Shown: positions 4,271 to 55,310, numbered from the stretch's first letter. The stretch: DNA of 64,000 bases from Yuukianura sp. NJ FZ-2021 (GCA_046563655.1 CM102288.1:434001-498000), one strand, 5' to 3'. Made by a program: numbers and translations. The notes: generated by a model from the letters alone, not told the origin.

Positions 4271-4345
4271 AACGTTGACTTTTCGGTTAGGTTCAACTAA
4301 AACTTAGAAACTTACGATTAGTTCCGCCAAGGTGAAACTCGGGAC

Positions 4346-22700: not shown

Positions 22701-25700
22701 TCAATTACTTCTGTTTAGAAATAATTTTGAACGTAGTGCTTTCTCTTCTGAGTCTATGTTCTTAGTTTTAGTGTTGATGAGTTGAGTGAGATTAGGTTAT
22801 GCTTTCACTTGGTCCCTAATGTTAACTGTGACAAATGGTTTTGCAGTGGAATTTTTGTAGAAATTTGTCTTCTTGGCCCTCATTAGACTTTAATTAGTGT
22901 ATATCTTTTAGTACAGAGAAGAGCGGCGTTTGTTTTTCTATTCTTTTGAGTTTTATAATGACAAAGACTGTCGAAATGCTAGAAGTGCATGGTAGATTTC
23001 CAAATTTAATAATTTGGATCCTTGTAGAAAGAGAAACAGAAAACGAAGCCAATTTTCTAGAGCAACATCAGGTTCAATTAGGCATGGTTTTTTTTGGTGT
23101 TGAGGAGGATTCGTACTAATTGGATTTTTAGGTGATTTTTTTATTGTGTTTTGTTTAAAATTTTGGGCGTGGGTCGTTGGAGTTTGAAGCGAGGAGAGTT
23201 TTTATTGTTTTCCATTTTGAATTAAAGGCAGTGTTATGATCATAGTTGAAAGAGGAATTGAAGTCGAAGCAGGAGAGAATGATGATGACGGGTGATTTGG
23301 AAAACGTTTTGGAGAAATGGAGATTGGGGAATGAGAAATTGATGGGAAGTACTTTCACCTCGAGCAGTGCTGAAGCATGCTCAACTGCTTTCTCTTTAGA
23401 GCTCATTCCACCGTATCAAATGTCCTCCTGCTGACATTTCCTTTCCACTCCTGTTACAAGTTGAGGTTGGGCTAGGTGAAAGGTGAGGTGAAAGTTCAGG
23501 CTGACGAGGATGAGGAAAGTCCCGATAGACCCATAGCAACAACACAAAAATGGAAGTACGTAGCGTTTTTCAAAAAAAGTGGAAACGAAAATTTCAAAAT
23601 TTTGTACTTTGACGTAGAAATTTTGTGTTTTCGTGTGAAAGGCACTGTAGTTGTGGTGCAGTTCGTGCCGCACGACAATGGTGACGGACAGCAGTAGCAT
23701 TTTGAGACGCGCCTATCCTAAAGCTCACATTTTAATGAACAATTTGCGTGACTTAAGTGGGAGAGAGAGTGGAGAAAACACGCTTTCACTGTATTCGCTA
23801 CTTTAGGAAAAAAGTAATGCACGGGGAAAGTTAATATTTTTCCTGGACAGAAGGAAATCTTAATTTTCCGGCGGGTACCATGCTAAAAGTAGTTATTTTG
23901 TTTTTTCAGTGAGTCAGGACTTGAAGTTTTTAGTTTATGTTGTAGTGTGTAGGTTGTGTTCTTATAGTCGTAATCTGTTTTTGGCGGGAATTCGTGACTG
24001 GAGCATGCAAGAGAGGAATTTGGGCCATTAGATTTTTTGGAAAGTCATATTTAACTTTCTCCGTTGGCTTTTGGAAGGCTGAATTTGATCCTTGGTTGTG
24101 TTTTGAGTTCGTGCGAGGGCTTAAAATTGTTAATTTGTGATAGCAAACAAACTATTTTTTGTCCAAAGTTCTTTACTTTTATGCTCACTTTCAGCGCAGG
24201 AAGTAAGTGAAAGTTAGCGTAAGTATAAAATATGGTGAAAGTTTGGGCTTTCTGGTGCTGCAATGAGTGCTGGAAGTGGAAGTTGCTTAAATCAGCGTCT
24301 CGTGGGAAGGGACAAGCGCTGGAGAGAGTGGGTGTAACCGCCATTTCGGAATTTGTGCCAGACGACGACGCCTTAAGTGAAAACTTTTGTCATCGAAAGT
24401 AAACTCGCAACACTAAAGTGTAATTTTAGAAAGTGATAAGCAGAACGTACGGAGAGAGGAAGGGAAAGGCAGCGGTAGTAAAAGTGGCGGGTAGTTGCGA
24501 CATTTTAAAATTTAGAATCTAGGAAGTTAGAAATTTAGGGTAAAAGTTTAAAATTAGGGTAGTTTTGGAAGAAATTCTAAAATCGGAGTAGTTTTTGGTA
24601 GAATTGGAGTTGAATTTTTCTAAATTGGCTTTTTTTTAAATGTTTTGTAGCAAACTGTGCAGTCGGGGAGTATGGCTTACCCTGGAGGCGTGTCTGGAGC
24701 ACTGCAGAGTGGTGACCTGTCTAATACAGCCATGACTCTGTCACAACTCAAAGTGGAGAAAGATATTGGGCAGATTTATAGTCAAGCAGTAGTGGGTGCC
24801 GTGGGAATTGGAGTTGGTGGTTCAGCTGTCGAGCAGCAGACGGTACATTTTTCTTTAAAATGACATTTTTAATTAAAATTTTTCAAAATGTAACTTTAAA
24901 TTGCTTTTTATGAAATTGCGTCTAACTGTGTTCTTTTTTGATTGTAGCAAACGGAGCCCGAGACAGAATCGCTGCTGGCCCTGTCCGGCCTCACCTCCAT
25001 TGTAACTCAAGGAACTTCCCCGCCAAGTCAACAAAACGGAACTGACGCGTCTTCCGGACTGGGCAAAGGACAGCCCAAGAGACTCCACGTTTCTAACATT
25101 CCGTTTAGGTTCAGAGATCCAGATTTGAGACAAATGTTTGGCGTAAGTGAACTTTTAGAGTGAAACAGCAGAGCTTTAGATCCAAAATGCCTACTTTCAC
25201 TCATGTGCTTGTGTGCTGCTTGGTTGGAACTCATTTGAATTTATAATGTGTCTCTCTTGGGACGTGGAGACCCGGGACCTGTTTTTGGAGACAGGCGGAG
25301 GAAATGAAAGAGAATTGTTAAGGAAAGCATTTTGGGATTTGAGTTTCAAATTGCTTTTATGATGAGATGAGCTATGGAATCAACACATTTACACAATCTG
25401 ATGGAGACTTTAAATAATAGAGGAGGAAATTATGTTAAGTCGTTGTCAAAGCTGGAGAAAATCGGATTTTGCCGGTTTAGGTTTTGGCGGATTTTAGATT
25501 TAACGAGTTTGGATGTTTTTTAGATTTGGGAGATAGGTAATTTTTGTTCTCTAGTTTTCGTGTCGTTTTAGTACGCTCCTGGAAAATGGCACTTTGAAAT
25601 TTAGTAATTTTGTGTATTGGAGAAAGAGTGGTTTTGAGTGTGTATTGAAGTTTTATATTGCTGTTTGGAAGTAGGAAGAGAAGCGTGATTGGATTTGGTA

Positions 25701-28700
25701 CTTTGATTTTTATGGTCTCCTTGACTTCTCCTTGACTCAATTTCCTGTTTTCCGTCCTTTCAAGCGGAAATGGTCGTTGGTTGACTGCTTTTGGTGAGGT
25801 TGCCAAGGAAACTTGGTTTTCGACTTGATTTGAGGCATCATTGGAGGACTTCACTTTCACTTTGAGATGAAAGTGCCTTTCACTTGGTGAAAGTCAAAGT
25901 AAAAAGCATCCAATTCAATTAGGTAGGACCAATTTCAAAACTGGGCTTTTATACCAGAAAGTGGAACAGAAAGGCTCATTGATGCTAATTCGGAGGGCCT
26001 GAGAGCCCTTAGTTGTTTGGGTTTTGGTTTAAAGAGGCCTTATTCAATTAACGAAGGTTTTATATAAGCGGATTTCGTAGTTTCGAAATTTTAAGTTTGA
26101 TGGAAGTGGAAGTGTGTTGACCATGCTTGAAACATAAAGTTAACCGCAACGGGGCGTGTGTCAGATTAGGTTAAATTGAAATGTCAAGGATTCAAATTCG
26201 TAGAGTTTTAAGCACTCTACTGATGAGTGAAAGTTTTTTTTGAAAATTCGGTTTTTGAAAGACAAGGCGTTGAAAAGTTGTTTCATTTTGGAAATGGATT
26301 GATGAGGACAAAGGTTTTCGTTTTATGAAATCTTTTGGCAAAGACGAATTATGCCACAAAATTTCAAAAAACTCTAGAAATTTCTAAATATCTGGAGCTT
26401 TAGTGGTGAATTGTTACGAACTTCAAATAAAAGTGTGCTGATTTAATTAAAGTCAATGGAAATGCGAGGAAAGTTGGCAAAGAAAGGGAGTTGGTTATTT
26501 ATCTTTTTTTGGGTGACAGAAACTGCTAAACCTCGTAAGCCTTTTGGACTCAAAAAATTAAATTAAAGTGCTCAAAAGACTTCTAAATTTTCTTCGTCTT
26601 GCTTAAATTGCCAATCAATATCAAAGAAAAGGCTTTCTTTAGTGAACTTTTTCATGAAAGTCGTTTTTAGACATGGAAAATCCTACAAAAACGGGGGATT
26701 TAGAATGGTGACATTTTAATCTTGTGTTCTTTGTGACGAGAAACTAAAGTTTGTTTAACGTTATGGTCTTTTTATCGTTTCATTTTTCTTGCTTTTCAAA
26801 AGAAAATATAAAAGTTTCCTCATCTTTCTCGTTTCTAGTGTTTTCTCGAAGGTGTTTTTTATATTTAGGAGTCAAGTTAAGTTGTAAAAAGTTTGGAAGA
26901 AGCTGCCAAGAATAAGTGAATCATTGAAAAAATTCTGAAACCAGGCACAAAACATTAGACGTAATTTAATGAAAAGATATTGCTGTGCTTCAAACTACTT
27001 TTTTACTTCCTTATGTTGGAAAACAAACTTTTAGTATTTTTAAAAAGTTTTTGCAAAAAAGTGACTTTTGGTTTTTTGGCAAAAGAGTTTTAGTTTTGTC
27101 TGCAAAGTGTCCAAATACACTTGGGAGGGTGATGGATTAGGTCAGAAGGGAATTCTGGAGAGTTCTAATGTTAAAAAGAGGAAGAGCGGCAGGCACACAA
27201 GGTCTAAACTCGGTGAGGGAAACTGTCAGTGAAGAACATTTTTTAGAAAAGAAAGAAGAATAGATTATGTATTTGGAATTTTAGTAAACTCTTCAATAGC
27301 GGAGGGAGTTTCTTGCTTACGCTGAAAAATTAGTTTGGACAGACAAACTGCGCCAAAAAGTTGTGGTGAATGATTCTGTTTATGTCTAAAGATGTTTTTT
27401 AAGCGAAATTTTATGACTTTGAGTGAACGGGAGTTTGGATTTTGAAAGTCAGAAACTTTTGGAAGCAGGAAATGTAAAATAATTTTGATTTTTTTTTTAA
27501 ATTGCAGTCGTTTGGACCAATCCTGGATGTGGAGATTATTTTTAACGAGCGAGGTTCCAAGGTACGTTAACTTTTACTTTTTTCATATTTTTTTTTCAAA
27601 AACATAATCTATGAAATCAAGGATCACAAAAATTTGAAATCCAAAAGGATGAAATTCTTCGCTAGCTTTAAGAATTTTGAAAAGAGAGGAAGAAAAGACA
27701 TGAACAGAAAAAAAGTGGAGGTTTGGTGTTAAGAAGTGAGAAAAAATTGAGGATTTTCGACAACGGAATCTTCAAAGTGTATTTTTTTGGAAGTTTGAAA
27801 AGGAGTGAAGAAGTGTGAAATTCAAACTGTGAGAAATGCTAAGTTAGGCTGTGAAATATTGGGAAGTTAGGAACTGTTAAGTGAAAGAATTTATAAGAAG
27901 AGGAGCCTGTTGAGAGAAAGTGACGTTGAGGGATGAGGTCACTTGGAAGAAGAGAGAAAAGTAGAAGTTTGTTGGGATAAAAGATACTCTTCCCATTATC
28001 TTATTCAGGAGTATCTTATATCTTGGGATAAAACTCTAAGGTTTCCCTTGTGCTTGAAAGTGGAAGTATAATTCCCAGTAGTTAACATCCGAGACTCCCT
28101 GTCATTTGATTAAAGCCCTATACAACACTTTCTGTCTTGGCTCCAACCTAAAAAAAACTAAAACTTCTTTTGGAATGAAAGGAGAGGCAGAATTTTCTGC
28201 TTCACAGAAAGCACACTTTCTCCACTTTATTTATTCTTTTTCCCGCTCCTCCTTTCCTTTTCTCCGCTTACATAAATCCGTCTGACCTTCTCTCTCCCTC
28301 CTCCTCCGTTTCCATGTCTTTGCCAAATGTACAGTATGGCTCAACATCAAATACAAACGAAATAGGGTAAATTGAAATGTTAAAGTTAGAAAGCAGGAGA
28401 AATGAGGTTTCACTAAATTTTGGACCATACTGTACAGTTGTTCCATTACTTTTTTAGAAAAGGAATTATAAAAGATGTCTTATTTTTTGGCATGGTCTTG
28501 TGAGTCTACTCTCATCCCCTTGGGTGGCCGTGGTCTTAGTCCTTAAAGTACTACTGTTTTTTTCTGACTTTTTCATTTTTTTTTTTAGTTTTTTTGAAAC
28601 TGTCTCTCTGTAAAGTATGTAATGCTTCCTTGCTTTTCCCATTTGAATTTGAATTAATAACCAGGCAGTACTTTCTTTTTTGAAAAAGTCACTGAGGGAA

Positions 28701-31700
28701 GGCAGAGCGGAACCGCCTGCTGCTGGATCCACTTTAAAACCCTCCAAATGTTAAATTTATTCTTTCAAGATTCCTAATTCAATATTTTACTTTATATTTA
28801 TGAAGTTATATATTTTTTCATTATATTTTAATGATTTTTGTTGTTAAATTAGGAATATTGAAGTGTTTTTAGACGAAGGAGTTGTCATTTTAATAACCGC
28901 ATACACTTAAATGTTGATGAAATATGGGGAATAGGGGAATATGAATTAAGTACGGTACTCATAACTTAGGGATGCGAACAGCCACCCGGGGAAGAGGCAG
29001 CAGGAATTTTGAATTTAAAAAAAATTCGGAGGGAACTTGGTGGAGTGGAGTGGTCGTAAATTGTAGTTTTTTGGCAAAGAGCGGAGAAAGTTATTAGTAG
29101 GATGGAAAGGGAGGAGAGAGAAATAACAGAAACACTAAAAAGTTATCCCTAACTTCCTAACTTTTAGTTTTCATCTAGGTCCAAAACTTTACACAGTTTC
29201 CCTGTTTTTACTCAACTTTGAAATAGTTTAACTCTAGTCATCAGCGGTACTTTTTAGTCTAAACGAAATTTTAAAATGAAATGGGCTGGAACGTATCTTC
29301 GATTTTTATTTATTACTTTTATAGAATCCACAATATTTTAAGTCTGAAACACGATTTGGGCAATTAATTGCTCGGAAGCGTAATTTTATGTGGAATAGCG
29401 TAAAAGTTCTAAATAGATTGCAGAAACAGAGCTCTGACTGTCACTTTCGGCACTTTCTCTGCTTGTGCCACTTTAATTACTGTCTTTGTCTAAACTTTTC
29501 CTAACACGCATTTGTACAAAGAAAAATGCTAAAAACGAATCTTTTGAATTTGGAAATGATTTATGGAATTGCATGAAGTGAAGTGGAGGAGGAGAAAGAT
29601 GAAAGTGGAGGCCCATTGCATCCAACATGTTCATTTTGACATTTTCAAAATGAATTTGACCTCTGACCTCCCTTCTTCTTTTAGTACTTGTCGTCTCGTG
29701 GTTTTCTTTTGAGTAGTAGATGACTTAAACCAATTCCAGCCTTGTTATGGTGTTAATTGTAACTTTGACAGTTGAATAATTTTAGCACAGTTGAAATGAA
29801 AAGTTATGTTGAATTTTGTTTTCTAATGCCCCTTTGACTCTCTTTTTCCTTCTCTTTAGGGATTTGGGTTTGTCACATTCGCGAGTTGTGCTGATGCTGA
29901 ACGAGCACGTGATAAACTTCATGGCACTGTTGTAGAAGGCAGAAAAATCGAGGTGTGCATGCTCTATTCATTCGCGTATTGTACATTTACCATTCTTAAT
30001 TTTATTTTTCAAAAGAAATCTCAAAAAACTGCTTTCTTCAAGTACTTAAATTGAAACCTTGAAAAACTAATGCTACTTGTTTCGTTGGATTTTGTATACT
30101 AAAAAAACGATGACAAAAATTGGAGCAATTTGTTGTTCATCTGAAAATAGCACAAGTGAAAGCGTGTGTCTCAAAAAGCTTATAAAACTCTAACAAAAGG
30201 CTGCTAATTTTAGTAAGTTTTCACTAAATGCTAAAAAAATGACATTGCTATTGCAAATTTATGATGCTGAATGTGAATGCTGCTGCTGCTGAATGTTCTA
30301 ACTCAAACAGAAAAGCCTAACTCTTGGAATTTGGATTTAAGAGAGTGAAAGCTGTCTGTGCTTTCTGCTATTTTGCACCTTCACTGACTTTTGCCTTTGT
30401 TTTTTTTCTTGTTTGTGATCAAACTTTGTCTTTCTCTCAATGGAATTTTGACAGGATTTAGTGGAATAGTTTTGAAAATATTTTTGAACATGTGCAAAAA
30501 TCAAAGATTTTGCCATGTCTTAATCTGTAACATGGTGGTAACCTAAATGTGAAGGATATGATAAATGGAAAAACAGATGTAAATTTTTATTGGCAGAATG
30601 TTGAAGTTTTTTTTTTAGGATTTTGAACACAGAGCGAAAAAAAAACAGAGATTTGAAAATAAGAGTAATCTCATGGGGTTTTTCTAAATTTTGACCTAAA
30701 TTGCCTGTCATGAGCCAAAAGAAAGAAACTTTTCAATTTGTTTCTCTATTTTGGTTTCTCGCAAGATGGATTTTAGACGGGATCTGGTTTTGACAGGTAT
30801 GGAATTTCGAACGTTGAAACGAAAAAAGCTTCTGGTGAAATTAGGATTTCCGTTCTTCTGGATCATAAAACGTATTTTCTAAAATAAGAAAAGAAAAGAC
30901 CGCAGAAAACTTTTAGTATGAGAGATTTAGTTGAGTGTAGACACGATGAAATTTTGAAATTTCGTAATTTTTATGAGTTCAGTTTTTTAGGTTTTGAGCC
31001 GGGAGTGAAAGTAGTTCAGTTTAGGAGAAAATAAGTCTAGCCAATTTACTTTCTTTGCTCTTAGTTTCTTTTTCTCGCATTTTTTTTTCAGAGATTGAAA
31101 AGAAGCGAGGCTTTTTGTTCAATTTTGGAAAGTGGTTTGTCACTTTGTGGGCATGATCCCATTTATGTTTTTAGAAAATGTCAGTTTGGGTAAAAGGAGT
31201 CATACGTAAGGTGGGACAGGTCGGATTAGAGGGTAACTGCAGTGCTGGCAAAATTTGTCAGGGGAAAAATAAGTGTGTTCAGAAGCTTTTAGTGAAGAAC
31301 ACGTAGACGTAACACTCCTGGGACATTTTTAATTTTTGAGGTCCCATTTTTGGTCAATTTTGGAGGATTTGAAGGTGCCTTTAAACATATTTTTAAGTAA
31401 AAACTAACATTTTGCAGTATCGGTTTAGTCTTTCAAAATATGTGCGGGAGGACAAGTTAACTATTTGGGTTTTAGTTTTTGGGAAGTTTTGATTTCCTGT
31501 CGTTCTAGTGCCATATGCCTCCCGCGAATTCTTAATGAGCATCCGGTTCCCATTTTTATAATGCACTCTTTGAAGACAAGCTTCGTTGAGTTCTTGTTAG
31601 TAGTTTTGAAAACTTTGTTTTTAAGGAAAGTTTTTGAGTAAAAAACGTGTTTGTTGTTTAAAAAGTTTTTGGCACGAGAAAGTTGACACTTTTGGTGGAG

Positions 31701-34700
31701 ACGAGAGTGACAAAAGGGAGAGTTTTGAGGAGCCTTTTATTTTGTTGGCGTCTCATTTTCTTTATTTTGTTCCAACCAGCCTCCTTGTGTTTTAAAATTG
31801 GAAGTTGGTGCCAAAGGGATGGCGGATGTCATGTCTCTCGCAAAATTAAGAGTTTTAGGGCTGCGTGATGAACATCGTCAGTGTGGTACCAATCCGCAAC
31901 GGAATTCACGCTCGGAACAACTCGGTTTCTTCTTTTGATGAGTAAGTTATGGAAAACGTTAAAATAAAATTAGGGAGATGATCATTGCATAAACGCATTG
32001 CAGAAGGTTTCACTGTAGGCTGCAATTTGCAAAAACTTTTTGCAACAAGGAATGGAAAGCACATCTAAATTTCAGCTTCACTTGACATGTACAAGGGCTG
32101 TTTTTTAACTTGCAATTCTTTCTGATTTAACATGCACGTTGTTCTTTGTAAAAGGGCGCACTTATTTTCAAAATGGTTTCTAATTTTGCACTGCTCGGGC
32201 ATTATTTACTTGGGCACTGTTTTTGAAAAAATATTTGTAAAAGTCAAAATTGCTATTTTTGAAAACAACTTCTGGAGAAAAGCTGGAAGCATATTTGTTT
32301 AAAATTGCATGGAATCATTTTTTTCCTGACTTCAATCTCGTCAGAAAGTGATGAACGAGAAAGCACTCTTGTCTTCCTATCTTCTCAACTTTAAAAAAAA
32401 CGGGAGAACAAACAAGCTCTTTTTTGTATTAAAAAAGCGAGAAAGTATAACAAGCTCTTTCTTTGACTTCAAAAAATTCAGAGCAAATAGCCGCAAAACT
32501 TTCTTTTTTCTTGTCAAATCAAAACTTTTGCAAAGAGAGTCTTGTTTTTTTCTTCTTTTTTGACTTATGACTTTGTTCTTGTAACTTCTGACTTCAAGCC
32601 CAAGTGGATTCAATCTTTTTTGAGAAAAGAAACAGAGAAAGTTCTTTTTCGAAAAAAGATTGATTGTTCGATATTTTGAAGTTTGTAAGTGTCTAAAAAA
32701 AGTGAATCTATGGGCGACTAAAAGAGTATATGTATATACAATGGAGGCTGAACTTCCTTTCTCTTGTGTCTATTGTGTTCGTGGTGTCTATTGTCTTTTT
32801 TATTGTGTAGAAAAGTCTATTCTTGGTTTTTAGTCTTTTGTTACTAAAAAAAGTTCTTTTGTAGCCTTCTGAATCTGTGGAGAACGGGTTTTAATATGTT
32901 TTCACTGTGACTTGATATTTTCTTTGGTGATTGTGCGAATAATACCAATTCCGTTTGGTTTCCAATGTTGGATCTATTTTTCACTTTTATTGTGTACGTG
33001 GCAATGACAGCTTCTGGTGCTTTTGTGCTTGGGAAATGGCAAAATATTGCCATAAGTTACTAATTGCTTCGCTTTTGATTTTTGCACTTTTTAGAAGCAA
33101 AACGGCATTGCCAAATCTCAGGATTCAGCAACTTCCAAATTTTGAACTTTTTGTGTTGATGCAATTAAAATTGTAAATTAAAGTTTGCATTAGTTATGAA
33201 TTTGGAAATGCTGAGATTTGTCGCAGTGCAGTGGTTTTGTAACATTAGAGTTAAAGTGGAACGAAGCATGCGTTGAAAAGTAGCATTTGTTTTGGAAAGG
33301 TTTCAAAATGTGCTTGGAGAAAGCTACAAATTAAAAACATGAATTTTGAAGGAATGTGGGATTCTGAGACTGTCGTAGAATTTGGTTGGATTTTAAATGG
33401 AATTTTGTTGTGTCCTTCCCAATGTTTTCTAGGTCAACAATGCTACGGCGAGAGTCCAAACCAAGAAACCAGTCAATCCTACGGGCATTACGAGCGGTAA
33501 GCAAAACAGTTCAGTTTTTAAATGCATTTTCACTTAAGAGCTTAAAAACTGCTTGTGACCTTGCGATGCTTCTGTTCCTTGAAACACGGAAATTAATTGT
33601 AACTTGAACTAATGATCTTTGCCTCACCTCTTCCAGAACGCAGACGTTGAAAACCTCCCGATCTACGAACCCATTCTCATTTTTCTAGTTCATTTTTTAA
33701 AGTTTTCTAGTCGCAATTCTAGGTTTCTAGTCTTTAAAGTTTGTTCAATTTTTCTAGTCTTTGTTTAATTTTTCTAAAAGTTTTAGCGCAGACGTCAGTT
33801 TGTTAGTCTTTTTTGGTTTGGGAATAAAACGGCCCTGAAACACAGGGCTTCTCTTTAGTTTTGTGTTTCTTGTTTTTTCTTTAATAAAAGTTTTTCCTCT
33901 CATCAAAGTTGAAAATTGGTTTTCGGGGAAAGTTGCGGTTAATTTTGAAATTTGGAAAGAAAAAAGTAAAGCATTGCCTAGACTCTTCGGTGCGGATGGA
34001 AACTTTCACTTTCTTCCTTTCTGTTTTTGTAAAAAGTTTTAAGTGGAAAGTTTTGAATGATGCGGGCTATGGAATTGGGAAGTAATTATTTGTGGAAATT
34101 AGGACGATCCTGGCGGAAGCCATGTGCTGAGTGCAAGCTGGGAAAAAAGTATGAATTGCATAAAGGAGAAAGCGAAAAAAGAAAACATACAAAAATATTT
34201 CTTTATTCAGAATTTTTTGTGAAGCGAATTTAATTAAAAAGTGAAAGTTTTCTTACTGTGTAATTTTAAATTGAGTTGAGTCAATTTTAAATTAAGGACA
34301 GAGAAACCAAGAGAAAGTTGGTGAAAACTTTATGAAAAAATTTCCATTCCATATTTTAGTTTAAAGTTTTCAAAGTTTTTGTACCCGAGAAAATGAGATT
34401 TTAAATAACAGTTTCTCCTTAGCTCAGAAGAGAGTTGTGCGACCTTTTATTAAATTTATGTTACTCCTCTTGAGACAGTGGGTAACACCGTGGGGATTTG
34501 CACGGTGTGAACAGAGCTTTATGTTCGGTATTACGTTAGTTTTTTTGGATAAAGTTTCTTCTTTTGAAAAGAAAAGTTTGATGGTTAGATTTTTGGTTAA
34601 GGTGTGAGATTACCGGCGCTTCCTTGGTCTTGGATTGGTGGGCCTGTGGCAGCGGCAGCAGCCGTAGCCGCAGCATCACTTCCTACCAGTCCTCTTGTCC

Positions 34701-37700
34701 TAGCGTCCCGGCCTTTACGGCGGAGGTAAGTTCGCTTTTTCAGAAATCGTTTTTCGAAAAAGTAAAAAAGAAGTAGGATTTTTTTGATCCTGTCACATCT
34801 GAAGTCCCCAAGCGCAGTTTTTCCCTTTCATGTTTCTTTAGTTTTTAGGAAGTGAAAGCAGAAGAAGGTTTTTTATGTTCGAAAAATGTGCGATCGAATC
34901 TTTTTTTTTTTGCGTCTAAGGATTTGAACTAAAAGTAAAAGGCAGAGAAAGTTTCTGTTTGCACAGAACAGGGAAAGGATCAGAAGTAGATTGAAACGTG
35001 GATTTTTTGGTTTGGGAGAAATCAGGCAAAGTTTTGTGAAAAAAGTGTTGAAAATTTCGTGTCTTTTTTTGAAAGTTAAAAAAGAGAGGAGGGAAATGTA
35101 GTGAAAAGGCAGGAGATGAGCTCGTGATTTTGTAATCCTAAGAACAGGCTGTGAACTGCCAAATTCATTTCCGTAGATTGAGGTAGAAGGAAGGAAGAAT
35201 GAATGGGATTTGATCAAGGAGAAAGTAATTTGGAATTTTCTGATTTTCTGATTTTTCGGGACAAATTTAGGGTGAAAGTTCAAAAGAATTTGAGGGAAAA
35301 TCAGAAGAAGCAAGACGCAGATGAGGACAAAAAAAGTTCCACCAGTTTTTTGATTTGTTACCAGGAAGTAATTTGATTTATTTGGAATTCTCCTGCGTAT
35401 CCAATTCCGCTGAGGTTGTAACTCTTAACATAGGTAGTTTTCGGTTGCAATTAGTTCAACATGCAATTCAGTCAAAAGCAAACAGAGCTAAATTAGAAAA
35501 CAGTTTAGTCTTGTAGAAACTGAAAGGAATGTAATTTTGTACATTTTTGTTGTTCAGTTGAACTCTTGTTTTTGAGTGGTTTGCTGTTGAACAAAAGTGG
35601 GCAATGGAGGTTTGAGAGCAGATCGTTTGCTGAAAATTACTTTGTCCTCATTTTGCAGCAGACTTTTAGTAACAAATTGGAAGAACCTTGGAGCGAGAGG
35701 AATGTGGAGAGAAAATAGTGAAATTCCTGAGGTAGAAAGCTGGGGCCAGACGATCAATTCCGGCAGGGGGAAGGATAAAGGGAAATTTACTTCCGGAAAT
35801 TCCGAGATTTTTTTTTCCATTGTGAAAAGTATGGTGGTTTCGTGAGGGCGGCGTAGATTGAACGATGTTGGTTACTCCTTCGATTAGGATTTTTTGCCTT
35901 ACTTTTTGAAAAAGTGCGCCAAAGATCTGCTAGATTTAAAATTTAGTGAGAAAGGAGAGAAAGCCTTTCCCCATTTCTCTTTTTTCTTCTCCAGGAAGAA
36001 GACTAATGCCTTTTCCCTTGTGGAAAATGGAGAAAGTGTAATCTGACCTGCCTTCTTTAACCCCTTCTTCCTCCTCAAGATTCATTTGGTCCATTAGCCT
36101 CAGGCTCCCTTCCATATCCTTCAACTTTTTGAATTTTACCGCTTCCGACGTCAAAAAAAGTTAACTGGAGGTTGCGTGAGGCAAACCACTTTCAGTTTGG
36201 GTCGAAACGAACCGCAATTCCTGACGTTTCCTTGTCCAGAATTCTGCTTGTATTGCTACTGATTCCTTTTTAACAAAAAATCGCAACTCCTTTTTGGCAC
36301 TGCTTGAGCAAGAATTGCAATTTTATGCTTGGCACTCTCTGAATTTTGAATTTACACACGGAAAATGACGTTTTGCTAATTTTGGAATTTTTTTTTCTTT
36401 TTTTTTTTCTCGTGTGGTCTTGAAATTGTGATGAATTGAAATGTTCTGCTCAACTGTTTACTTACTACTAACTCTCGCCGTGGGAATCCGTGATGATGTG
36501 AACTTTTGGCTGGAAAACCTAACTGTGGCAAATGGGATGACATTTGACCTTGTCTGTTAATGTGACGGTGTTACGGTGGTGTCTGTTGACACAACCACAA
36601 CCGCCACTAATGGAATGAACTGACATGACTCTCCTTGCGTGTGGTCTTGTTTTTCTTTTTTCTATTTTTGCACGACTAACTACTGTCAAAAAACCGACGG
36701 AACAAAACCGAAAATCGTTGAAATACACAGTTGGAGTGGGTGCAATTCGTGGAGCAGCACTTCAGCTTCAACGATCCCTTGGACATCGTCTCACGGTCCA
36801 ACCTCATCCGTCGGCACTTGTCGGAAACACGACTTCGGCAGCAGCCATCGCCGCCGCGGCTCTAGCTCGTCAAACATCGCTGTCCAACTTGAGCGCTGCC
36901 ACTGCAGCGGCTGGTTTGCATGGACCCCTGTAAGCCAAAACACAACAAAAATGCATTTTTACTACCTTTTTTTACGATTTACTTGTGTCAAAACGTAGGG
37001 AAGTTTTGTACAAAAGAGTATTTTTCCTTGGGCCAGTGCGTTACGTACTACTTGTAACTGCTTCATTTGAAAGCATCGTGTTTATACTGTTTAAGTGAAT
37101 GACGTTTGGTCACGAACATTTATTGGAAAGTATTGATTTGACCTTTGCATCGTGGTGGCAATGTCCACAAGTTTTTAGGAGGGACACGATTTTCAAAAAA
37201 AGAGAGAAAGTGTTGCTCCTAATTATTTTGATACGCTTGAAAAACTTGCACCTTGTTTAGTTAATTGGGGTTCTAAAACATTTTACTGCTTTGGTCACGT
37301 TGTGTTCCTTGTTCTCAACATTTTGAGTTCACCTAAAAACTTTAGGGAAAAACTTTCTTAGGTAATTTGAAATTTGAATTAAGAGCGTCAAATTTTTAGG
37401 CCAAACACAAAATTTTTGAGTTGTAGCACCTTTTAACAATATTTTCGAAAAAAAAGTTTTGGAGTTGGGTTCGTACGCTTCTCATTTTTAAAAGGTGAAA
37501 AGTTTTGAGGTCAATTCAAATTGTAAATTCTGCGTGCGTTCTTCACCTTCTGTTCCCCTACACATTTAGTTTTGACGGGAACATTTGTATTAAGGTGAAG
37601 CGGGAGACGTGACTCTGTCCGTGAGAAACTGTTTAGATTTTTTATGAAAAACCGAAAAACGAGAAATTTTTTTCCTGAGAAAAACGAAACAGGAGAAAGT

Positions 37701-40454
37701 TGGTGTGGAGCGAAATTGGACTGAGGTGGTTGTGGCTCCGAGGCTATAAATAGTGTAACATGTAATCGAACCTGTCATCGTACCACACGGAAGGATTATC
37801 CTAAACCCATTGATTTTTCAGTTTCAATCTCAATTGACACGGGAAAGCGCGTAAAAGGGGATTTCTCAAAAAAAATATTTTGAACAAAATGGTGAAAGTG
37901 AAAGTAGATCCTACTGCTATGCTGTCTTTGTTTGAGACATGAGAAAAAATGTGGTAGAAATGGATAGTAGTTTCTAGTTTCCAATGACAGTTGCTAAGAA
38001 GTTCCTTTGTCAAGGACTTAATGGTGGACTTAATAGAGAAAGTAGAGAAAGGAGCAGGGAATAATCAATTTCTTTTTTTTCTTTTCTTTTCTTCTCGTCT
38101 GTCTGCCAAAGAACTTCCATTTTGAACGTTTTTTTCTGTTTTTTCTCTTTTGCAGTGGAGTCTACTATGATCCATTCTTAGCTTCTGCGGCGGCTGATCC
38201 AAGGGTCCAGGTGAGCCTTGTATGTTATCAATTTTTACTTTTTTGTTCACATTTTTATATATTTTGTTAAATGAAATAGAGTGAAAGTGAATGATACAAA
38301 TGGAGAAGTACGGAGAAAAGAAGAATGCTGACTTTGCAGTGTATGTCTGTTCATTCTGTAGAGTATAATTTTGAAAGTCACAATGAAATGTTAGGAAATC
38401 TTGTAAAGTTTTGTGAAATTTGCCAAGATTTGAGTAAGATTTGGATGAAGGAATTTTCAAGGTAGGTTGAGTTTTTAGGGGGAAAGTAATAATCGTAAAG
38501 GCGGAGGGTTTGGAGTTATTTATGAGAGAGATTCTTATAAAGGAGATAGTTTCGTTCCGTGATCTTCTAAAACCCGGGAGAGAGAGATCATGGCTTAAAA
38601 GCCTATAAAACAAAAGGTTTCTACTAAGAACAGTTAGAACTGGATGAGATTTTGGAAATTCAACTAAAGTTTTCCGCTTGCTTGGTGCTAAATTAACGGA
38701 ATTTAAGCTCTGTAGTTCTGGGAGTAAGAGTAATAACAGTAATTGTAAAGTTAGGCTTTGCGCAATACTTGGGAAGTTTGTCAGTATGTTGGAGAAAGTT
38801 GTGGTTTAGTACTAAAATCTACTACAACTTTGTTGCTCTCAGTTCTAACGTTACACGAAAAAGTTGAATTCTTTAGCATCGCTAAAACGTTATGGTTTAG
38901 ATAAAATAGGATGATCATCGAATTTGCTGAGTCGAAGTGTTTTTGCTTGTAGTGCACTTCATCTCTTTCTTTTATTTTGAGAAGTGACTAGGAATTTGTC
39001 GGTTGCGTGAAAGTGGTTGAATTGGGTGTGACAGGGAGGAGAGTGGTGAAAGCTGTCTGGAAATTTTGCAATTAGGTTTTCATCCCAGAAGGAAGTAAAG
39101 TAAACAGGAGATGGATCAGCTTCCAACAGAAAGACGGAATTTGAGATGCTGAATGGCTGAGTGATATGGAATTTCAGGTTGGCGTCTGTGCGAACTTTTC
39201 TTTTGGCTGAACTTCACAAGGCTTTACTTTGTTTTGAAGGAGCTGGATGACAATTTGACATTTTGACATTGACGAACTTTTTAGAAGGAAATCCGTTGTT
39301 TGTGTAGTGTTTGGTGTCACTTATGAGTTAACGCCATTGTTTATCTTTGAGGATGGATTCCAATGTCATTGTAGATTTTGTGAGAGAAGATAAGTACAAT
39401 GAGGGAGAGTTGAGTGAAAACAAATGGTGGTGTTTAGTGAGAAATGAGGAGGAGAAAGTGATGTGAGATGTGAAAGTTTTGTTTTTTGTTTTTTTCTAAG
39501 TTTTTTTTAATTGTGTTTTTATGAGTTCAAAATGTATAATTAGTTATGAATTTAGGCGACTTATGCTGCAGCAGCCAGCTACTCAGCGGCAGCGGCAAGG
39601 GCAGCATATGCTGGTGCTGCTGCTCAGCCGGCGGGCGTCGCAGGGTTTGTTCCAGGGTAAGAGTTCCCAGCGACGACAGTGGAGCATGGGTTATAGTTAA
39701 TTTAATTATAATTGTATTTAATAACACTAACTTATTAAATTGTTTGTTCCTTGTATTGTTTCTTCACTAATTTCTAATTTGGGCTTTTGTGTCACCTTAT
39801 CGTTTAGACCCTGCATAACTTGAACTTCCTTGTGATTGTTGTTTCTCTCTTCCTCTTCTTTGAAATTAGTATCCATTTCATCGGCACTAAATCCATGATG
39901 ATGACGATGAGTGTTAAACTAACATTTGCTGTATTGTTATGAGTTGGAACCAATTTTTAATGTGTGGCTTTTATAGTTTGTCTATTTTTAGAAGGCGGTT
40001 TTCAAATTTGAAAAAATTTCAGTCGCCTTATGGACCGTTAACATAGAAATTATCAATTTTGTGAAATTTTGTATACAAACCTAATGGAGAAAGTGTTTTT
40101 CAAAAACTGACTTTTGCCATAAGCGTCGCAATGGAAGCGAAAAAATCAACGAAACAAATCCGCCTTCTAAAAATAGACAAACTATAGTTTCATTTTTATT
40201 CCTTCTCGATTTTGGATTGTGACAATTTTGTGTGTGGTTTGTGATTGATTTTTTTTTCTGTGTAGATACGCCAGGGAGTTCCCAGAAACGTATCTAAGCC
40301 ATAATATTGGACCGGTTCCGGGCTACGGCGTAAGTTTTGTTGCATGAAATTTTTATTTCAGTGTGATTTTGTTTTGTCGAATGTGTACATTTCGAATTTT
40401 AAATTATAGGCAGCGATGTATCGGAGTAACTACAGCAGATTCGCACCATACTGA
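13766..40454 (+). CDS. Rbfox1: RNA-binding protein fox-1 homolog (Rbfox1/A2bp1), multi-exon and alternatively spliced
   Basis: Phase-consistent GT-AG exons: 24651-24842, 24948-25142 ([23 protein letters not shown]), 27508-27561 ([18 protein letters not shown]), 29860-29952 (GFGFVTF...[10 protein letters not shown]), 33433-33496 ([12 protein letters not shown]), 34602-34725 or 36731-36929, 38156-38210 (VYYDPFLA), 39556-39656, 40266-40329, 40410-40454 ([11 protein letters not shown]). The RRM and C-terminus are diagnostic of Fox-1. The 5' exons (13766/13823-13861, 14771-14794) are less certain. Confidence 0.95.
14771..14794 (+). CDS. Rbfox1: Rbfox1 24-nt microexon (GVQGLYYP); may also be the end of an alternative first exon starting at ATG 14696
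   Basis: Strong polypyrimidine acceptor tttctatttccttcgtcacag and donor ccg|GTAATT, phase 0-0. YYP followed by QTVQSG resembles the insect Rbfox1 N-terminal MYYPHMVQ motif. Confidence 0.65.
23550..23555 (+). CDS. Rbfox1: Candidate alternative Rbfox1 start exon ending ATG GAA|GTACGT (M-E)
   Basis: caaaaATGg start context directly followed by a phase-0 donor compatible with exon 24651. Confidence 0.3.
29860..29952 (+). CDS. Rbfox1: Conserved 93-nt Rbfox RRM exon (autoregulated cassette)
   Basis: Exactly 93 nt, phase 0-0, encodes the second half of the RRM. The donor GTGTGCATG contains TGCATG at 29956-29961. Confidence 0.9.
34602..34725 (+). CDS. Rbfox1: Rbfox1 mutually exclusive exon A ([14 protein letters not shown]...RPLRR)
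   Basis: 124 nt, phase 1 in and phase 2 out, donor GTAAGT, Ala/Pro-rich. Confidence 0.75.
36731..36929 (+). CDS. Rbfox1: Rbfox1 mutually exclusive exon B ([12 protein letters not shown]...GLHGP)
   Basis: 199 nt, phase 1 in and phase 2 out (same as exon A), donor GTAAGC. Confidence 0.8.
39972..40186. mobile_element. MITE-like element (215 bp) with perfect 27-bp terminal inverted repeats, in an Rbfox1 intron
   Basis: tatagtttgtctatttttagaaggcgg (39972-39998) is the exact reverse complement of 40160-40186. TA dinucleotide at both ends; no ORF. Confidence 0.8.
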
Positions 40455-47039: not shown

Positions 47040-48549
47040 CTAAAGAGATCCATAACCATTTATGGAGTGTTTAGCCTTTCGCTTCCCAAGCGGCATGACA
47101 GATGTACTGAGACTGAGGTCGTCTCTTATTGAATTTGGTCCTGTCGTGTCAGTGTCTTGCAACAGATGAATCGATTCCGAAGAAACACCTCGAGTAGGCC
47201 AAGGAAGCTGGATTCGAACGGTGGACGGATGGTCGGGGTCACCCCATTTCCGGTAAACAAAAACATTGAACAGAGCTTGGAGCGGATTTAGAATGGCCAT
47301 GACGTAAGCTGTTATGAGAATCGGTTCATGAGGAGCATCGTACAAAAGTGACCACACGGCAATGGCGTTGACCAAGTTTGGAATCCAACAGATGATGAAC
47401 ACTAGATTGATTGATAGGAACTTGAGTCGCAGAATACGGAGCTGCTTTCGTTCGTGACTGGTGAACCTTCCGGATCCAGCAATTACAGTTTTCGCCTAAA
47501 AATTCAAGGTAAACTTTCAAAATTCAAAATATTCGGACAAAATTCATAATAATCTGAAAAAAATCTTGCGCCTTACTTGTTCAGAAGCTTTGAGGTATAT
47601 GAGTGGATTGATGAGCATAATGAGAATGATAGGAACGTAAGTGATGCAATAGTTCGGTAAAATCCGAAGGAATATGTTGGACTCCATGGAGTGACAACTG
47701 TTGAAAAGTAATCAATATAACGTAAGACTTATTTAAAAAAAATGGTTTCTTTAGAACTTACTTCAGATCTGGAAAGTACAGAATCGTTAGCCCGATAACA
47801 GTTAAGAGGAGAGGTACACTCCAGGCAATAGCGTGGTAGAGAACAAAGTTCCCTGGAAGTCCATTCACCATTCTGAGAACGTCAATTGCATACAAGAATG
47901 TCCAGAGATACGTAACACCGTAAAAGTACTGGATCCAACCCTGGAAAAACAATCAGTTAAGCCTAATCAACAACTGAAGTAAATTGTATTGTTTTTACCG
48001 AAGAAATTGCACAAAATATTGAGCCGAGAGAATAAGACTGTTCGACTGCAAGAGCTTGAGATATGAGCCAAGACGATGATCGTATTAACACCGCTAAAAA
48101 AAACAACAAAAAGTTAGGAACGATGTGCGAAAGCATGATAGTTATCTCATCTCTTTTTTGGACGCATTGCAACTTGCAAGGTTGCACGTAGTATTTTGAA
48201 AAAAAAATCGTTACCAATAGAAGCCAGCAAGTCAGCCGTAGCAAGCCACACAATAATTCGTCGTCCTCGGAGGAATGACGACAAAACATGACCAGGTCCT
48301 CCTTCGAACTTCCGCGGAAGAATCTGTGCATTAAAAATAATTAATTTATGTTACTTATTGTTAATTTAAGTTCATATTTTAATGGAATGGTTAGTTGACC
48401 TGATAGCATGATCCTAAAATCCCAAAAAGTGAGGATACGATACAAATGATGTTATATGATTCGTATCGGTAGTGCAGGACACTATCCACGACCAGTCTCG
48501 TCCTATTGTTGGCAATGCAGCAGAATGTTTGAATCGCTGGATCCGCCAT
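47040..48549 (-). CDS. GPR143: G-protein coupled receptor 143 (OA1) homolog
   Basis: Six coding exons. N-terminus MADPAIQTFCC, GRRIIVWLATADLLAS, WIQYFYGVTYLWTFLYAID, FIICWIPNLVN, MAILNPLQALFN. Confidence 0.9.
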
Positions 48550-49242
48550 GACTGAAAAAGTAAAAAGCAATAGCCAGTTATGCAATCACAAATCTAGAAC
48601 TAAGCTACGGATAACAACACTTACGGTTACGTTTTCAGCTTCATGGATCGTATAAGTGCTCGACCTTGGCGGCTGCGTCCTGGTCTTCTTTGTTCTAAAG
48701 TTCAAGATTCGATCAGAGTCATCACAAAGCAGTCGAAGCGTTGGGTGTCACACCCAATATCAACTACAAATCAAATAAAAACACTACGGTTATTGTTTGT
48801 TTCAAGAATTTGTTGTTATCCATCAACATTTAATAGACCACATTGAAGTCGAATAACTAAATTCTAAGAAAAACAAAAACAAATTAAAGTTACCTTGTTT
48901 AGATAAGTTCAATCTACACGAGATTTACTAATTTTAAGGGAGAAGCAAGTTTACGATGAGGATGAAAAGATGAAATATCCAATGTCCAATTCAAAAGCAA
49001 AGTGTCTTAAAAGTTGTGCCTTCAAACCTAACCTGTTCCCGCTTATCATAAGTGTTAGTAATCCTTCTTGATTAAAAGCTTTATCATCATAAATTCAACT
49101 CCTCTTCAAGTCTTGGGAAGAATTTGTTCCAACAACGTCTATAAGTTTCCTGTAGAAATCCTTGCAAGTTTAATGAAGCTTCAATTCATTAAGTTATTAA
49201 AGTGTAATTGAAACAGTTTACAAAATGTCCGAGTTCCAAACG

Positions 49243-49259: not shown

Positions 49260-51674
49260 TCATTTCTGTTGAGCTGCTTTTGAAATGTCAAATCCCACGT
49301 TTCGGAGGAGATTGGAAGTGGGTCCAGTAGGATGTTCTTGGGATTGGAAGGACTCCAGTAAGTTCGTTAGAACGTTTACGTCAATGTCAACCGGTTCATA
49401 GGTCGTACTTGGAACAGCATTTGCACCACCGTGTGCTCTCTGACTGTTGGTCTTCGTTTTCCGTTTTCTAGGAGGAGCTACAGGTCTGCTGGTTGACTGA
49501 AACGTTTTCCCAACTTCCGTTTCTTGCAATTCTTGATCCATGGCACTCATGAGTGCGTCCATTTCTGGATCTCTCCCGTTAACACCGCAGTACTTTTTCT
49601 CCAGTTCTTTGATTTTTACATTAGCTTCATCTTCTTCACTGGATGGTTCACTCAAAGCAAATTCCGTCAACGGTTTTCCTAGTTCTAAAATCCGGGATTA
49701 AAAAACACTCATGGAATGCTATTTTCAGGAAAAAAAAAAAACTTTTGTCGTATTGTACCAGATAGAAGTTTGTCCATCGCAGAAACAAATTCATCGGCCT
49801 GGAAGTCTAGTGGGTCCAAATCACCTTCCCCATTTTCATCCCCGTCTCTTTAAAAATTCAATTGACATTTAATTTTAAAGTTAAATCGAGCTCCATAAAA
49901 ACGATTGCACTTACTCGTTGGCCTCAACGCCAGTGAAGTCCGACATTTGGGACATGAACTCCTTCAACTTTTGTGGAATTTGGTCTAACTTTTGATCCGA
50001 AATTTTTGTTTTGAATTGATCTGCCAGGAGAGTCTCCAAACTGGCACCGTCCAATTCCAACCACGATTCATCTTCAATCACAAACCGAACAATTTGAATC
50101 TTGATATTTTGAAAAGATATTAAGTTAAACTTACCATCGTCCGGTAACGATTCTTCGCCAGTGCTAGTTAAATCCTGGGCATTCATATGTTGTGCCAGTA
50201 GTTCCTGAACTTCCCATCCTGCTTGCTCTTCAACCGTAGATTCCAGTTCATCCTTGACACTTGTGTTGAAATATGACTTAGCTCGTTCGTTCAGTTCCTT
50301 CCACTGTCTGGATCCTTCAACAAGATCTCTGTAGTAACCGTATCCCTTCAACTTGCCTTGGTATTGAAGCCAAGCTGGAGAAGATTCCAGGCTACCAGTA
50401 GGATCTTGTCGTCTCTTTCCCCGGTTCAACAGAATCTCAAAACCTAAGGTCTGGAATCGCAAAACAGAAGCAGATTAAAATAGAACTAGCTAAAAAGTTA
50501 AAATAAAAAAAAGCGATTCGTATAATATCTTACCAGCTTTGCTCCTAGTGAATGCGCCTTGAATTCTGGTGACTTGGGTAAAGGTAATTTCCAGTTGACT
50601 TTGATGTCGGGATAGTAATCGGCAGAAGACAGCATAGCATACAGAGTTCTTGTGAAACAAACACGTATTTTGACCAGATTTTGAATTGGACTGAAAGTAG
50701 GCATCAAGCGAACGGCCTATCGAGAAGCAATAGTTTCAACATCCGTTACAACAGCTAAAAATTAAACATTGAAAATGCTTGCAACCTTCATGTCGATGGA
50801 ATCCTTGTCATGAAAGACCCGAACAACAGGAGCAATTAAACTTGGTTTTGCTTGCAGCAGCATAGCAACTCTGGGCGGTACGACGACATTGACATGATGT
50901 AAGTGCTGCAAAATCTTCTCTGGATATTTCCCAATTCTCATTTGAATGGCCCTATGAATCCTGGAATCCGCAATTGTTTGCTTCGGGAACCTTCGGATCA
51001 GATCCAGCGCTGTTTCAGTTTCCAATGGTTCTTCGATGCTTGCAAGCACTTTTCCCTGGTCATCATGAACTTCTCCAACCAAATGTGTCTTCCCTTCATA
51101 AATGTACACCTAAAACAACACCAAGTTCAAGAAACCATGTATACCCAAGTGCTTAAAGTATTTGCCTACCCTATTCTGACATGCTTCATCCGATTCTGCC
51201 CATTCCGGAAGTTCTTCCGCGGCTTCAATAAGTAAAAATTCTCCATCCTGATCTACCACCCTGAAAATGAAACAATGAATCAGTGATTTTCAAATTCCTT
51301 TAATTGAGCAATTACTACAGTACGTTCTTGCCTAACCTGGCAATTAGTCCCGGAAATTTCAATGTCAGCTGTTGTAAAATATGAACAGTGAACCATTCGT
51401 CCTCAACGTTTATATCATATTGAAGATATCCATGGAAGAGACCACTTTTCTTATCCAGCTTCAACCGAAATGAATCCTTCTGCCACAAATAATTACCAAC
51501 GATTGATAAGGTTTCAATGTTCAATTTCACCAAGAGTTCCTCCAATGTTGCCTCGTCGCAACCGCCAGTACTTTCCAGTTCCGCTTTGCTTGGGAACAGA
51601 AAGTACTCCACGTAGGCCTCTTGTGCGGCTTTAGTAAAAACGTCCTTAAAACTTGCATGTGCTGATGCAGACAT
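49260..51674 (-). CDS. ecd: Protein ecdysoneless (ECD/SGT1 family)
   Basis: Multi-exon. Motifs EDEWFTVHIL, DGEFLLIEAA, FTRTLYAML, GYYRDLVEGS, NLLESFQSQ...GPTSNLL. Confidence 0.92.
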
Positions 51675-52038
51675 TGTCGTTAACTCTACTAATACTACAA
51701 TTAATTTTACTACGATACGATTAACTCAAAAACAATTAAAAACCAAACCAAATGTAAACAAAAGGTTTGATCGATTTGACTTTTTTATCTCTTTTTTGTA
51801 AATTGCAATCTCTTTGATATGAATTTCGCGCCTTCAAACATTTTGAGACTAGAGGAAAGTCTTTCCCCCAATGAACAAAACCCACAAATTAATTGACTTC
51901 ACTAATTAACAGCGCAGTTAACTAGCTAACAAAACAAATCAACTAGGCTTGAATAAGCGAACAAATTGTGTGTTGGGCATGAAAAAGATTTATTCACAAT
52001 CCTACCATAAAGTGTTAAATTAATTTTTAATTCTGACC

Positions 52039-53589: not shown

Positions 53590-53718
53590 CGTTACACAAC
53601 GATTTCCTAATACAACACACCTCGGTATTCGTTAATTTATCAATTAGTAAATTGACAAATCAATTAAAACTTGTTGTTCAAAAAACCGAAACTTGAAATT
53701 GATTTTTTTTTCTTTCAA

Positions 53719-53922
53719 ACTATAGTTGGGGCAACCAAAATAGACCCAAGTTTTTCTAGAGGATACTCGCACTCACGCCCTTCTCCAACTGGCACCCGCT
53801 TCTCCACTCAACTCCAAAATGAACCTCCCATCTAAGAAGAGACTGCCACAAGCTTTACAGAGGTGTGAGTGCGAGTATCCTCTAGAAAAACTTGGGTCTA
53901 TTTTGGTTGCCCCAACTATAGT
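53719..53922. mobile_element. MITE/foldback element (204 bp) with perfect 58-bp terminal inverted repeats
   Basis: 53719-53776 is the exact reverse complement of 53865-53922, with an 88-nt spacer. Both ends read ACTATAGT. Confidence 0.88.
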
Positions 53923-54453
53923 ACATAATTTGCATTTCCGATGAGTTGTAGAAAGGGCTACTGACGGACGACCCACTCCACCAATAATCGTTTATGGGCA
54001 ACCAAAAATATTTCTGCTTCTTCTTTCTAATATTTCTACGCTTGATTTTTTTAATTAATTAGCAATTTATTGCTAAACTTTATCATAATTGCATAACAAA
54101 AACAAACCTTTAAAAAGGTGTCCTATTGTGTTATATTTTGAAGAGCTTTAAAACCATGATTAAATTTGAAGTCATATACTTACTCATTCATAATTTTCAG
54201 TTGTGCATTTTCCCAGTAATCGTTGGATAAAAAACCACTTTAAAATTATAATCTAATCTACAGCAATGAAAAGATAACGTGTATTAACAAGAAATGTGTC
54301 GTTCGATTTCGGAAGTGAGATTACCTGTCGGTTCAGAAAAATTAGACTCTTTCGAACATTTGTAAGAATTGGAATTTAAAATTCTTATTTTTTTTTAAAT
54401 CAATAGGCATAACTGAAAGAACATTATTTCGTATTTCTTGGAAACTTTTGAAA

Positions 54454-54852: not shown

Positions 54853-55310
54853 TTTGCTCTAAATTTTTGAAATGTAAACTCTAATACGTATGACCTTTGA
54901 CCTTTGACTTCTGGCGAATTTCAGTAAACGTAATATCGAATGCATAACTTATATTTACTACTGTACCAAAACTTATTATCACATTCAGAGTTGATATAAA
55001 TTGTTCATGTTTGAAGAATTTTGGAAAAGTTATTACATAAAAGTATAAAAAAAATTATTACAACTATAAATTGAAATTATAAAAAATATAAAAATATAAT
55101 TTTTAACATTTTATAAAATGAAGCAGTTTGTGCCCATAGTTATTTCCCATGCAGGAAATGAAGACAGGTAGAAATGGGACTTTTAGTACTACCCAGAACA
55201 CAAACATTTCTGATTTTTGACGCTGATAAAGTAAAGTAAATCCATCAATTCTTTCAAAAGTCAAGAACGATTGATGGATTTTTAGAAACATCGACATTTC
55301 GATTTTTCCG

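Follow-up and report, generated by a model that had tools for sequence, protein, structure and literature searches.

An old pair of alternative linker exons in the Rbfox gene of Yuukianura, probably kept apart by the reading frame

A stretch of 64,000 nucleotides from Yuukianura sp. NJ FZ-2021 (GCA_046563655.1 CM102288.1:434001-498000), called the window in what follows, contains an Rbfox gene in which, as we believe with moderate confidence, two exons, A and B, form an old mutually exclusive pair. They encode alternative segments of the linker that joins the RRM to the C-terminal region, and the main enforcer of their exclusivity appears to be the reading frame. Rbfox proteins act as master regulators of tissue-specific splicing, with an activity that depends in part on the region following the RRM. 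A first-pass annotation of the same DNA had proposed that A and B are chosen by an RNA switch of the Dscam exon 6 type, in which a docking element upstream of A either folds locally or pairs with a selector upstream of B. Our analysis did not support this switch; the 10+5 bp complementarity on which it was built is most likely a chance match between two GC-richer islands in AT-rich introns. All positions are counted from the first letter of the window.

Results

The + strand of the window carries the Rbfox (Fox-1 family) gene at about 14.7-40.5 kb, in DNA that is eukaryotic and AT-rich. Using tblastn with springtail Rbfox proteins, we placed 10-11 exons (Table 1). The exons encoding the RRM are 87-100% identical to the springtail proteins, Pfam detects RRM_1 in the proteins of relatives, and the final exon terminates with SRFAPY and a stop codon. 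The gene accordingly encodes a single Fox-1-type RRM followed by an Ala-rich C-terminal region ending in SRFAPY; the C-terminal consensus of the Fox-1 family is reported as RF(A/T)PY (PMC2777236). In a protein search with one of the relatives, P0002, the nearest named proteins were collembolan (Orchesella dallaii, Folsomia candida and Allacma fusca). The exon map, the RRM and the SRFAPY-stop end thus support the assignment to Rbfox that had been made at first pass.

Between two constitutive exons, here called U and C, lie exon A (124 nt) and exon B (199 nt), each with AG/GT splice sites. Since both exons are entered in phase 1 and left in phase 2, each length is 1 mod 3. The exons were joined by script from the window sequence. 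The U-A-C and U-B-C joins are open reading frames; the U-A-B-C join meets a stop at the 5th codon of exon C, and the U-C join, in which A and B are both skipped, likewise meets one within exon C. The pair therefore has what characterizes a frame-enforced pair: equal phases, lengths not divisible by 3, and a premature stop when both exons or neither are included. The identical phases, and the stop that inclusion of both exons places in the next exon, had already been noted at first pass, and joining the exons confirmed them. We propose that the reading frame is the main enforcer of the mutual exclusivity of A and B. Transcripts with both exons or with neither would be subject to nonsense-mediated decay, or would give a truncated protein without the C-terminal RFAPY end. 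The choice of A versus B, we infer, is probably set by splice-site strength, by trans-acting factors and perhaps by local structure around exon A.

Relatives show the two segments in alternation. We compared 123 Rbfox proteins, left out three that lack the RRM end, and determined the segment type in the remaining 120 arthropod proteins: 112 had the B segment only, 7 had the A segment only and 1 had both. The sole A+B protein, P0006, is a Folsomia candida gene model that also translates the intron between the two segments. P0006 is a read-through gene model, an annotation error that masks alternative splicing. Among the RefSeq isoforms of F. candida, which like those of the other two species named here are computed models, X5 and X3 are A-type and X4 is B-type at the same place in the protein. 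The same holds for two wasps, Leptopilina boulardi (X7, X4 and X3 A-type; X5 B-type) and Vespula pensylvanica (X8 and X11 A-type; X10 B-type). In all three species the segments sit between the exons encoding ...ARVQTKK... and ...VYYDPF..., and the junctions imply the same phases as in the window: in every species compared, A and B forms have different residues at each of the two junctions, as expected of split codons with the same phases.

Transcript-like contigs also carry one exon type each, P0077 having A and P0002 having B. The latter, to which exon B is 70% identical, encodes 327 amino acids on a contig of 1337 nt and joins the upstream exon directly to B and B to C. The match to exon A, P0122 (79% identity), was found by an HMMER search and comes from a short, genomic-looking contig. 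A word-based protein search with exon A returned no match, which is a false negative, since HMMER recovered P0122 and A-type isoforms exist. Because the alternation is found in both springtails and wasps, the pair and its frame rule are at least as old as the ancestor shared by springtails and insects. Together with the frame rule, the A-only and B-only isoforms of relatives support, at the level of sequence, the first-pass claim that A and B are mutually exclusive. The pair is already visible in the isoform annotation of relatives and is apparently undescribed in the literature: a search of the articles themselves returned no paper on the arthropod A/B pair or on RNA structure in it.

Duplication of one exon from the other is not detectable by sequence comparison, the BLASTP similarity between A and B being non-significant (E = 6.2 and 86). 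They share an Ala-rich core in the same frame (34642-34663 versus 36838-36859, 19/22 nt identical), which might go back to an ancient duplication or reflect nothing more than low complexity. Pfam, run on the A- and B-isoforms, found the RRM only and gave no domain label for either segment.

The three RNA elements of the proposed switch are all present in the window with the sequences and positions given at first pass (Table 1). Positions 34501-34508 are the reverse complement of 34485-34492, giving an 8-bp hairpin with an 8-nt loop. The duplex with the selector, at -24.7 kcal/mol, consists of 10 bp to 34482-34491 and 5 bp to 34473-34477, separated by an internal loop of 4 x 5 nt. The first-pass caveat that the 10-mer gtaacaccgt of the docking element recurs at 2364 and 47912 was also confirmed. 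This 10-mer has 4 copies in the window versus 0.04 expected, with no visible cause, and the four contexts have nothing in common outside it. One-mismatch copies number 6 versus 1.66 expected, and the 7-mer core, with 6 occurrences versus 3.53 expected, is not enriched. A repeat family was considered as the origin of the 10-mer and rejected, the four copies being without common flanks. The copies at 2364-2380 and 47912-47928 share a longer word (13 identical bases, 1 different, 3 identical), and the one at 47912-47928 falls in an opposite-strand coding exon.

The pairing of docking element and selector stands out from chance only when its position is restricted after the fact. Duplexes were scanned with seeded 34-nt windows, against a background of dinucleotide shuffles and of real 200-nt segments from introns of this gene. 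The docking:selector duplex ranks about fifth of those that join the intron before A to the A-B intron. Those ahead of it include 33987 x 34933 (-30.3 kcal/mol, a level reached by 13/200 shuffles), 33604 x 36165 (-28.4 kcal/mol) and 33919 x 36197 (-24.8 kcal/mol), and two of these three are incompatible with it. A duplex of -23.9 kcal/mol or better arose somewhere between the two introns in 155/200 dinucleotide shuffles. When the arms were limited to 150 nt from the acceptor of A and 250 nt from the acceptor of B, 3/200 shuffles were as good; when they were limited to 200-nt flanks, 6/150 were. Random pairs of real 200-nt intron segments equalled the docking:selector duplex in 63 of 1200 cases (about 5%). 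These position limits were chosen post hoc, and 15 flank pairs would have been equally reportable. Complementarity here is thus not above the background of the gene's own introns. Given the chance rate without a position limit, the post hoc rule and the 15 reportable pairs, the match is no evidence of selection.

The best duplex between the A-B intron and the B-C intron (-25.7 kcal/mol) is within the chance range, and no downstream pairing like that of Drosophila serpent is evident. A metagenome scan with an exon A alignment found no related genomic DNA; nor did one with the exon B peptide, in which the window sequence was the only reference and the reach was to close relatives, nor scans of genome contig and viral contig collections. 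P0122 includes a 57-residue intron read-through peptide that has no similarity to the window intron and is uninformative on conservation.

The predicted local folds compete with the long-range pairing. Folded alone, neither the 162 nt before exon A (z = -1.0) nor the 211 nt before exon B (z = -1.3) was better than shuffles. Two adjacent hairpins, 34460-34466 x 34480-34486 (hairpin 1) and 34487-34492 x 34501-34506 (hairpin 2), take up the docking bases, and in local folds the selector forms part of a separate hairpin with 36588-36605. When the two flanks are cofolded, the docking:selector pair probability is about 0; in a larger cofold it is about 0.11 versus 0.87 for hairpin 2, and forcing the helix costs 1 kcal/mol over the free minimum free energy (MFE). 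Such two-piece cofolds leave out the cost of closing a 1.7-kb loop. The element supposed to act as the selector of exon A is simply the adjacent arm of the 8-bp hairpin and brings no exon closer. With the pairing at chance level, local hairpins in competition and no true selector for exon A, the Dscam-type switch was not borne out. The last bases before the two acceptors, 34588-34598 and 36706-36716, are complementary over 11 bp (10 Watson-Crick and 1 G-U); this AU-rich helix, the sole intermolecular one in the MFE structure of the two-flank cofold, probably arises by chance.

Another stem encloses exon A. Elements b and b' (Table 1) form 18 bp, 16 of them Watson-Crick and 2 G-U, with two 1-nt bulges. 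The stem reaches -26.9 kcal/mol in 34-nt windows and -39.9 kcal/mol when extended to 34471-34515 x 34789-34837. None of 150 shuffles matched it, and 22 of 1200 real intron-segment pairs did. It is present in both the MFE and the centroid structure of 34440-34860. On these predictions the b/b' stem would be a better candidate for a regulatory structure than the docking:selector pairing, yet it is unproven.

The exonic TGCATG that had been noted near the donor of exon B was confirmed (Table 1). Across the window this hexamer occurs 22 times versus 21.96 expected and so is not enriched. It lies in a GLHG peptide that is conserved in relatives; its overlap with the Leu-His-Gly codons means that constraint on the coding sequence is enough to account for it.

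Table 1. Positions of the Rbfox exons and of the sequence elements discussed in the text
Feature	Position	Strand	Description	Evidence
Rbfox exon	14699-14797	+		tblastn
Two Rbfox exons	24651-25142	+		tblastn
Rbfox exon	27511-27561	+		tblastn
Rbfox exon	29860-29955	+		tblastn
Exon U	33433-33496	+	constitutive; encodes the last part of the RRM region; 1 nt carries over to the next codon	translation; tblastn to P0003 and P0002; splice sites
Candidate long-range arm	33604-33637	+	pairs with 36165-36198 at -28.4 kcal/mol; excludes docking:selector unless a pseudoknot forms	duplex scan
Candidate long-range arm	33987-34020	+	pairs with 34933-34966 at -30.3 kcal/mol; also brackets exon A	duplex scan
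Hairpin 1, 5' arm	34460-34466	+	pairs with 34480-34486 inside the docking element	MFE, centroid; pair probabilities 0.46-0.83
Element a, proposed docking element	34473-34492	+	reads agacagtgggtaacaccgtg	sequence; GC 0.55 in an intron of 0.33
Element b	34491-34510	+	directly 3' of the docking core; upstream arm of the stem around exon A	duplex, MFE, centroid
Hairpin 2, 3' arm	34501-34508	+	reads cacggtgt; pairs with 34485-34492	pair probabilities 0.68-0.87
Exon A	34602-34725	+	alternative; 124 nt; phase 1 in, phase 2 out	79% identity to P0122; A-type isoforms; splice sites
Element b'	34793-34810	+	downstream arm of the stem; 68-85 nt past the donor of exon A	duplex, MFE, centroid
Element a', proposed selector	36565-36584	+	reads acggtgttacggtggtgtct; 147 nt upstream of exon B	sequence, duplex
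Exon B	36731-36929	+	alternative; 199 nt; same phases as exon A; encodes ...AAAGLHGP	70% identity to P0002; B-type segment
Exonic TGCATG	36917-36922	+	8-13 nt before the donor of exon B; over Leu-His-Gly codons	motif scan
Exon C	38156-38210	+	constitutive; site of the premature stop with A+B or neither	tblastn; exon joining
Rbfox exon	40252-40335	+		tblastn
Last Rbfox exon	40413-40451	+	SRFAPY-stop	tblastn

Other features of the window

A known RNA family was sought with Rfam and rejected; the only match, to U6atac, is sub-threshold and lies elsewhere in the window, at 37972-38091 (+) in the intron directly before exon C. Its score of 19.9 bits (E = 0.086) is below the gathering score of 33, and it is probably noise. 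Another exon-flanking stem of the gene, 24818-24851 x 25201-25234 (-31.2 kcal/mol), lies around the Rbfox exon at about 24960-25142, with which the RRM begins. A late Rbfox intron contains an inverted repeat, 39971-40004 / 40154-40187 (-43.3 kcal/mol in 34-nt windows), that resembles small inverted repeats of the transposon type. Stronger than any other in the window is the inverted repeat 53715-53780 / 53861-53926 (-55 to -61 kcal/mol), which adjoins a CSN4-like gene.

Neighbouring genes, called by Pfam on single open reading frames, span 3191-4303 (-), 47040-48585 (-), 49260-51725 (-), 52039-53631 (-), 54346-60067 (+) and 60848-63672 (+). They comprise tandem ShK-domain proteins with charged repeats, an ocular-albinism-type receptor, an SGT1/ecdysoneless-like protein, a protein like COP9 signalosome subunit 4, a xylosyltransferase and two short-chain dehydrogenases. 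Their introns are short, unlike those of Rbfox.

Discussion

The exons, their phases, the stops of the wrong joins and the A-only and B-only isoforms of relatives lead us to favour, with the reserve expressed at the outset, an old exon pair held apart mainly by the reading frame. Several points weigh against this view. Decay of the wrong A/B forms is a prediction here, and the RefSeq isoforms of relatives are computed models. Restricting the arms to the neighbourhood of the acceptors makes the docking:selector duplex uncommon, by either shuffle test as well as among real intron pairs. Elements a and a' occupy two of the few GC-richer islands in these introns, and such islands could be regulatory. 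The cost of only 1 kcal/mol for forcing the docking:selector helix means that, in the folding model, a switch would be energetically possible, though it is not indicated. Finally, the region 34440-34860 folds with z = -2.9, none of 100 shuffles being as good, and structure around exon A may therefore be selected.

In an alternative account, which we consider unlikely, regulation is local to exon A. The b/b' stem, with inner AU-rich helices, would enclose A and its splice sites in a loop of about 280 nt and favour its skipping and hence the use of B; hairpin 2 would compete with the stem, and the docking:selector helix could stack on it but would be unnecessary. The strength of the stem, its place in the MFE and centroid structures and the low z-score speak for this account, as does the asymmetry of the pair: exon B is without a comparable flanking stem, its best flank duplex (-12.6 kcal/mol) being matched by 150/150 shuffles. 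Measured against real sequence, however, the stem is less unusual. Besides the 22 of 1200 intron-segment pairs that equal it, the 64-kb window holds 32 distinct stems as strong as this one that span 100-700 nt; the stem emerged after 15 flank pairs had been tested; its probability in the larger cofold is only 0.13; and the z-score may be inflated, the shuffle having mixed a GC-rich exon with AT-rich introns.

The switch proposed at first pass, in which the docking element either folds locally, so that A is used, or pairs with 36565-36584, loops out A and activates B, appears to us quite improbable. Such a mechanism would be akin to those of Dscam exon 6, 14-3-3 xi or the upstream pairing in Drosophila serpent. 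The complementarity is real, each of its arms lies just upstream of an acceptor, where shuffles seldom place one as good, the alternative folds are nearly isoenergetic, and the architecture fits the upstream pairing that is reported, from tests, to direct distal exon use in serpent (PMC4691838). Freed of the position restriction, the pairing nevertheless falls to chance level, real intron segments supply equally good pairs in about 5% of cases, and some 15 flank pairs were open to being reported. Three stronger duplexes join the same introns, two of them excluding it; in the folding models the docking bases are mostly taken up by hairpins 1 and 2, as the selector is by a hairpin of its own; exon A has a hairpin arm in place of a true selector; and no comparable downstream pairing stands out. 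Very doubtful, in our estimate, is autoregulation, by which Rbfox would bind the exonic UGCAUG near the donor of exon B and its own level would shift the A/B ratio. The site is the only + strand GCATG between the upstream exon and exon C, and for vertebrate RBFOX2, autoregulation of the mutually exclusive pair in its own gene has been reported (bioRxiv 10.1101/2025.10.28.685214). The hexamer is at its expected frequency in the window, though, and the conserved Leu-His-Gly suffices to explain it; hymenopteran (wasp) B-type proteins have LHP at this spot, which is incompatible with GCATG; and a single site without flanking intronic copies is weak evidence. We therefore retain the frame-enforced pair as the preferred reading.

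By analogy, the A/B pair would be closest in logic to the B40/M43 exons of vertebrate RBFOX1/2, and the first-pass switch closest in geometry to serpent. B40 and M43 probably lie further downstream in the protein than A and B. They are described as mutually exclusive and incompatible in frame, so that including both truncates the protein (PMC2777236; bioRxiv 10.1101/2025.10.28.685214). Like A and B, they belong to the Fox-1 family, form an alternative pair C-terminal to the RRM and have lengths of 1 mod 3, with autoregulation reported for RBFOX2; unlike A and B, they are given as only 40 and 43 nt long. The docking element resembles that of Dscam1 exon 6 in being an upstream element complementary to an element before a downstream variant exon. 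In Dscam1, every one of the many duplicated exon 6 variants comes with a selector of its own, and no intronic element is more conserved than the docking site; here, there is one candidate selector, of chance-level strength.

In Drosophila serpent, also a two-exon cluster (exons 4.1/4.2), pairing between the intron before the first exon and the intron before the second is reported to direct use of the second (Yue et al. 2016; PMC4691838), which is the geometry that had been proposed for A and B. The four serpent elements are described as highly conserved among Drosophila and validated by compensatory mutations, and the exons as duplicates (PMC4691838). Unlike the serpent exons as so described, A and B have no significant similarity, and no convincing downstream pairing accompanies them. 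Tandem duplication of the variant exons is the rule in docking/selector systems, though not a strict requirement. Human ATE1 exons 7a/7b are likewise two mutually exclusive exons, with intronic pairings that compete, and these RNA elements are reported to be conserved and tested (PMC7797038). In the papers examined that contain both Rbfox and docking/selector terms, Rbfox appeared only in references or in other contexts (PMC6071210, PMC7404189).

The structural elements might also be combined. In a model that we regard as quite unlikely, the GC-richer island of 50 nt at 34460-34510 would be a three-state switch for a hexapod-wide choice of Rbfox exons. In one state its two local hairpins would form and exon A would be used; in another, the stem with 34793-34810 would enclose and silence exon A; in a third, the long-range helix with 36565-36584 would stack on the exon A stem and bring the acceptor of exon B forward. 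The reading frame would remove mistakes, and the exonic UGCAUG in B might add feedback by Rbfox. If true, it would be the first case in which the gene of a splicing regulator itself relies on RNA structure to choose between mutually exclusive exons that are not duplicates. An RNA switch here, if confirmed, would extend docking/selector-type control to non-duplicated exons, which is currently speculation.

Being common to springtails and wasps, the A/B pair implies that the reading frame has held two linker segments separate since early in the evolution of hexapods. It parallels the B40/M43 pair of vertebrates and so offers a case for asking how a splicing factor diversifies itself.

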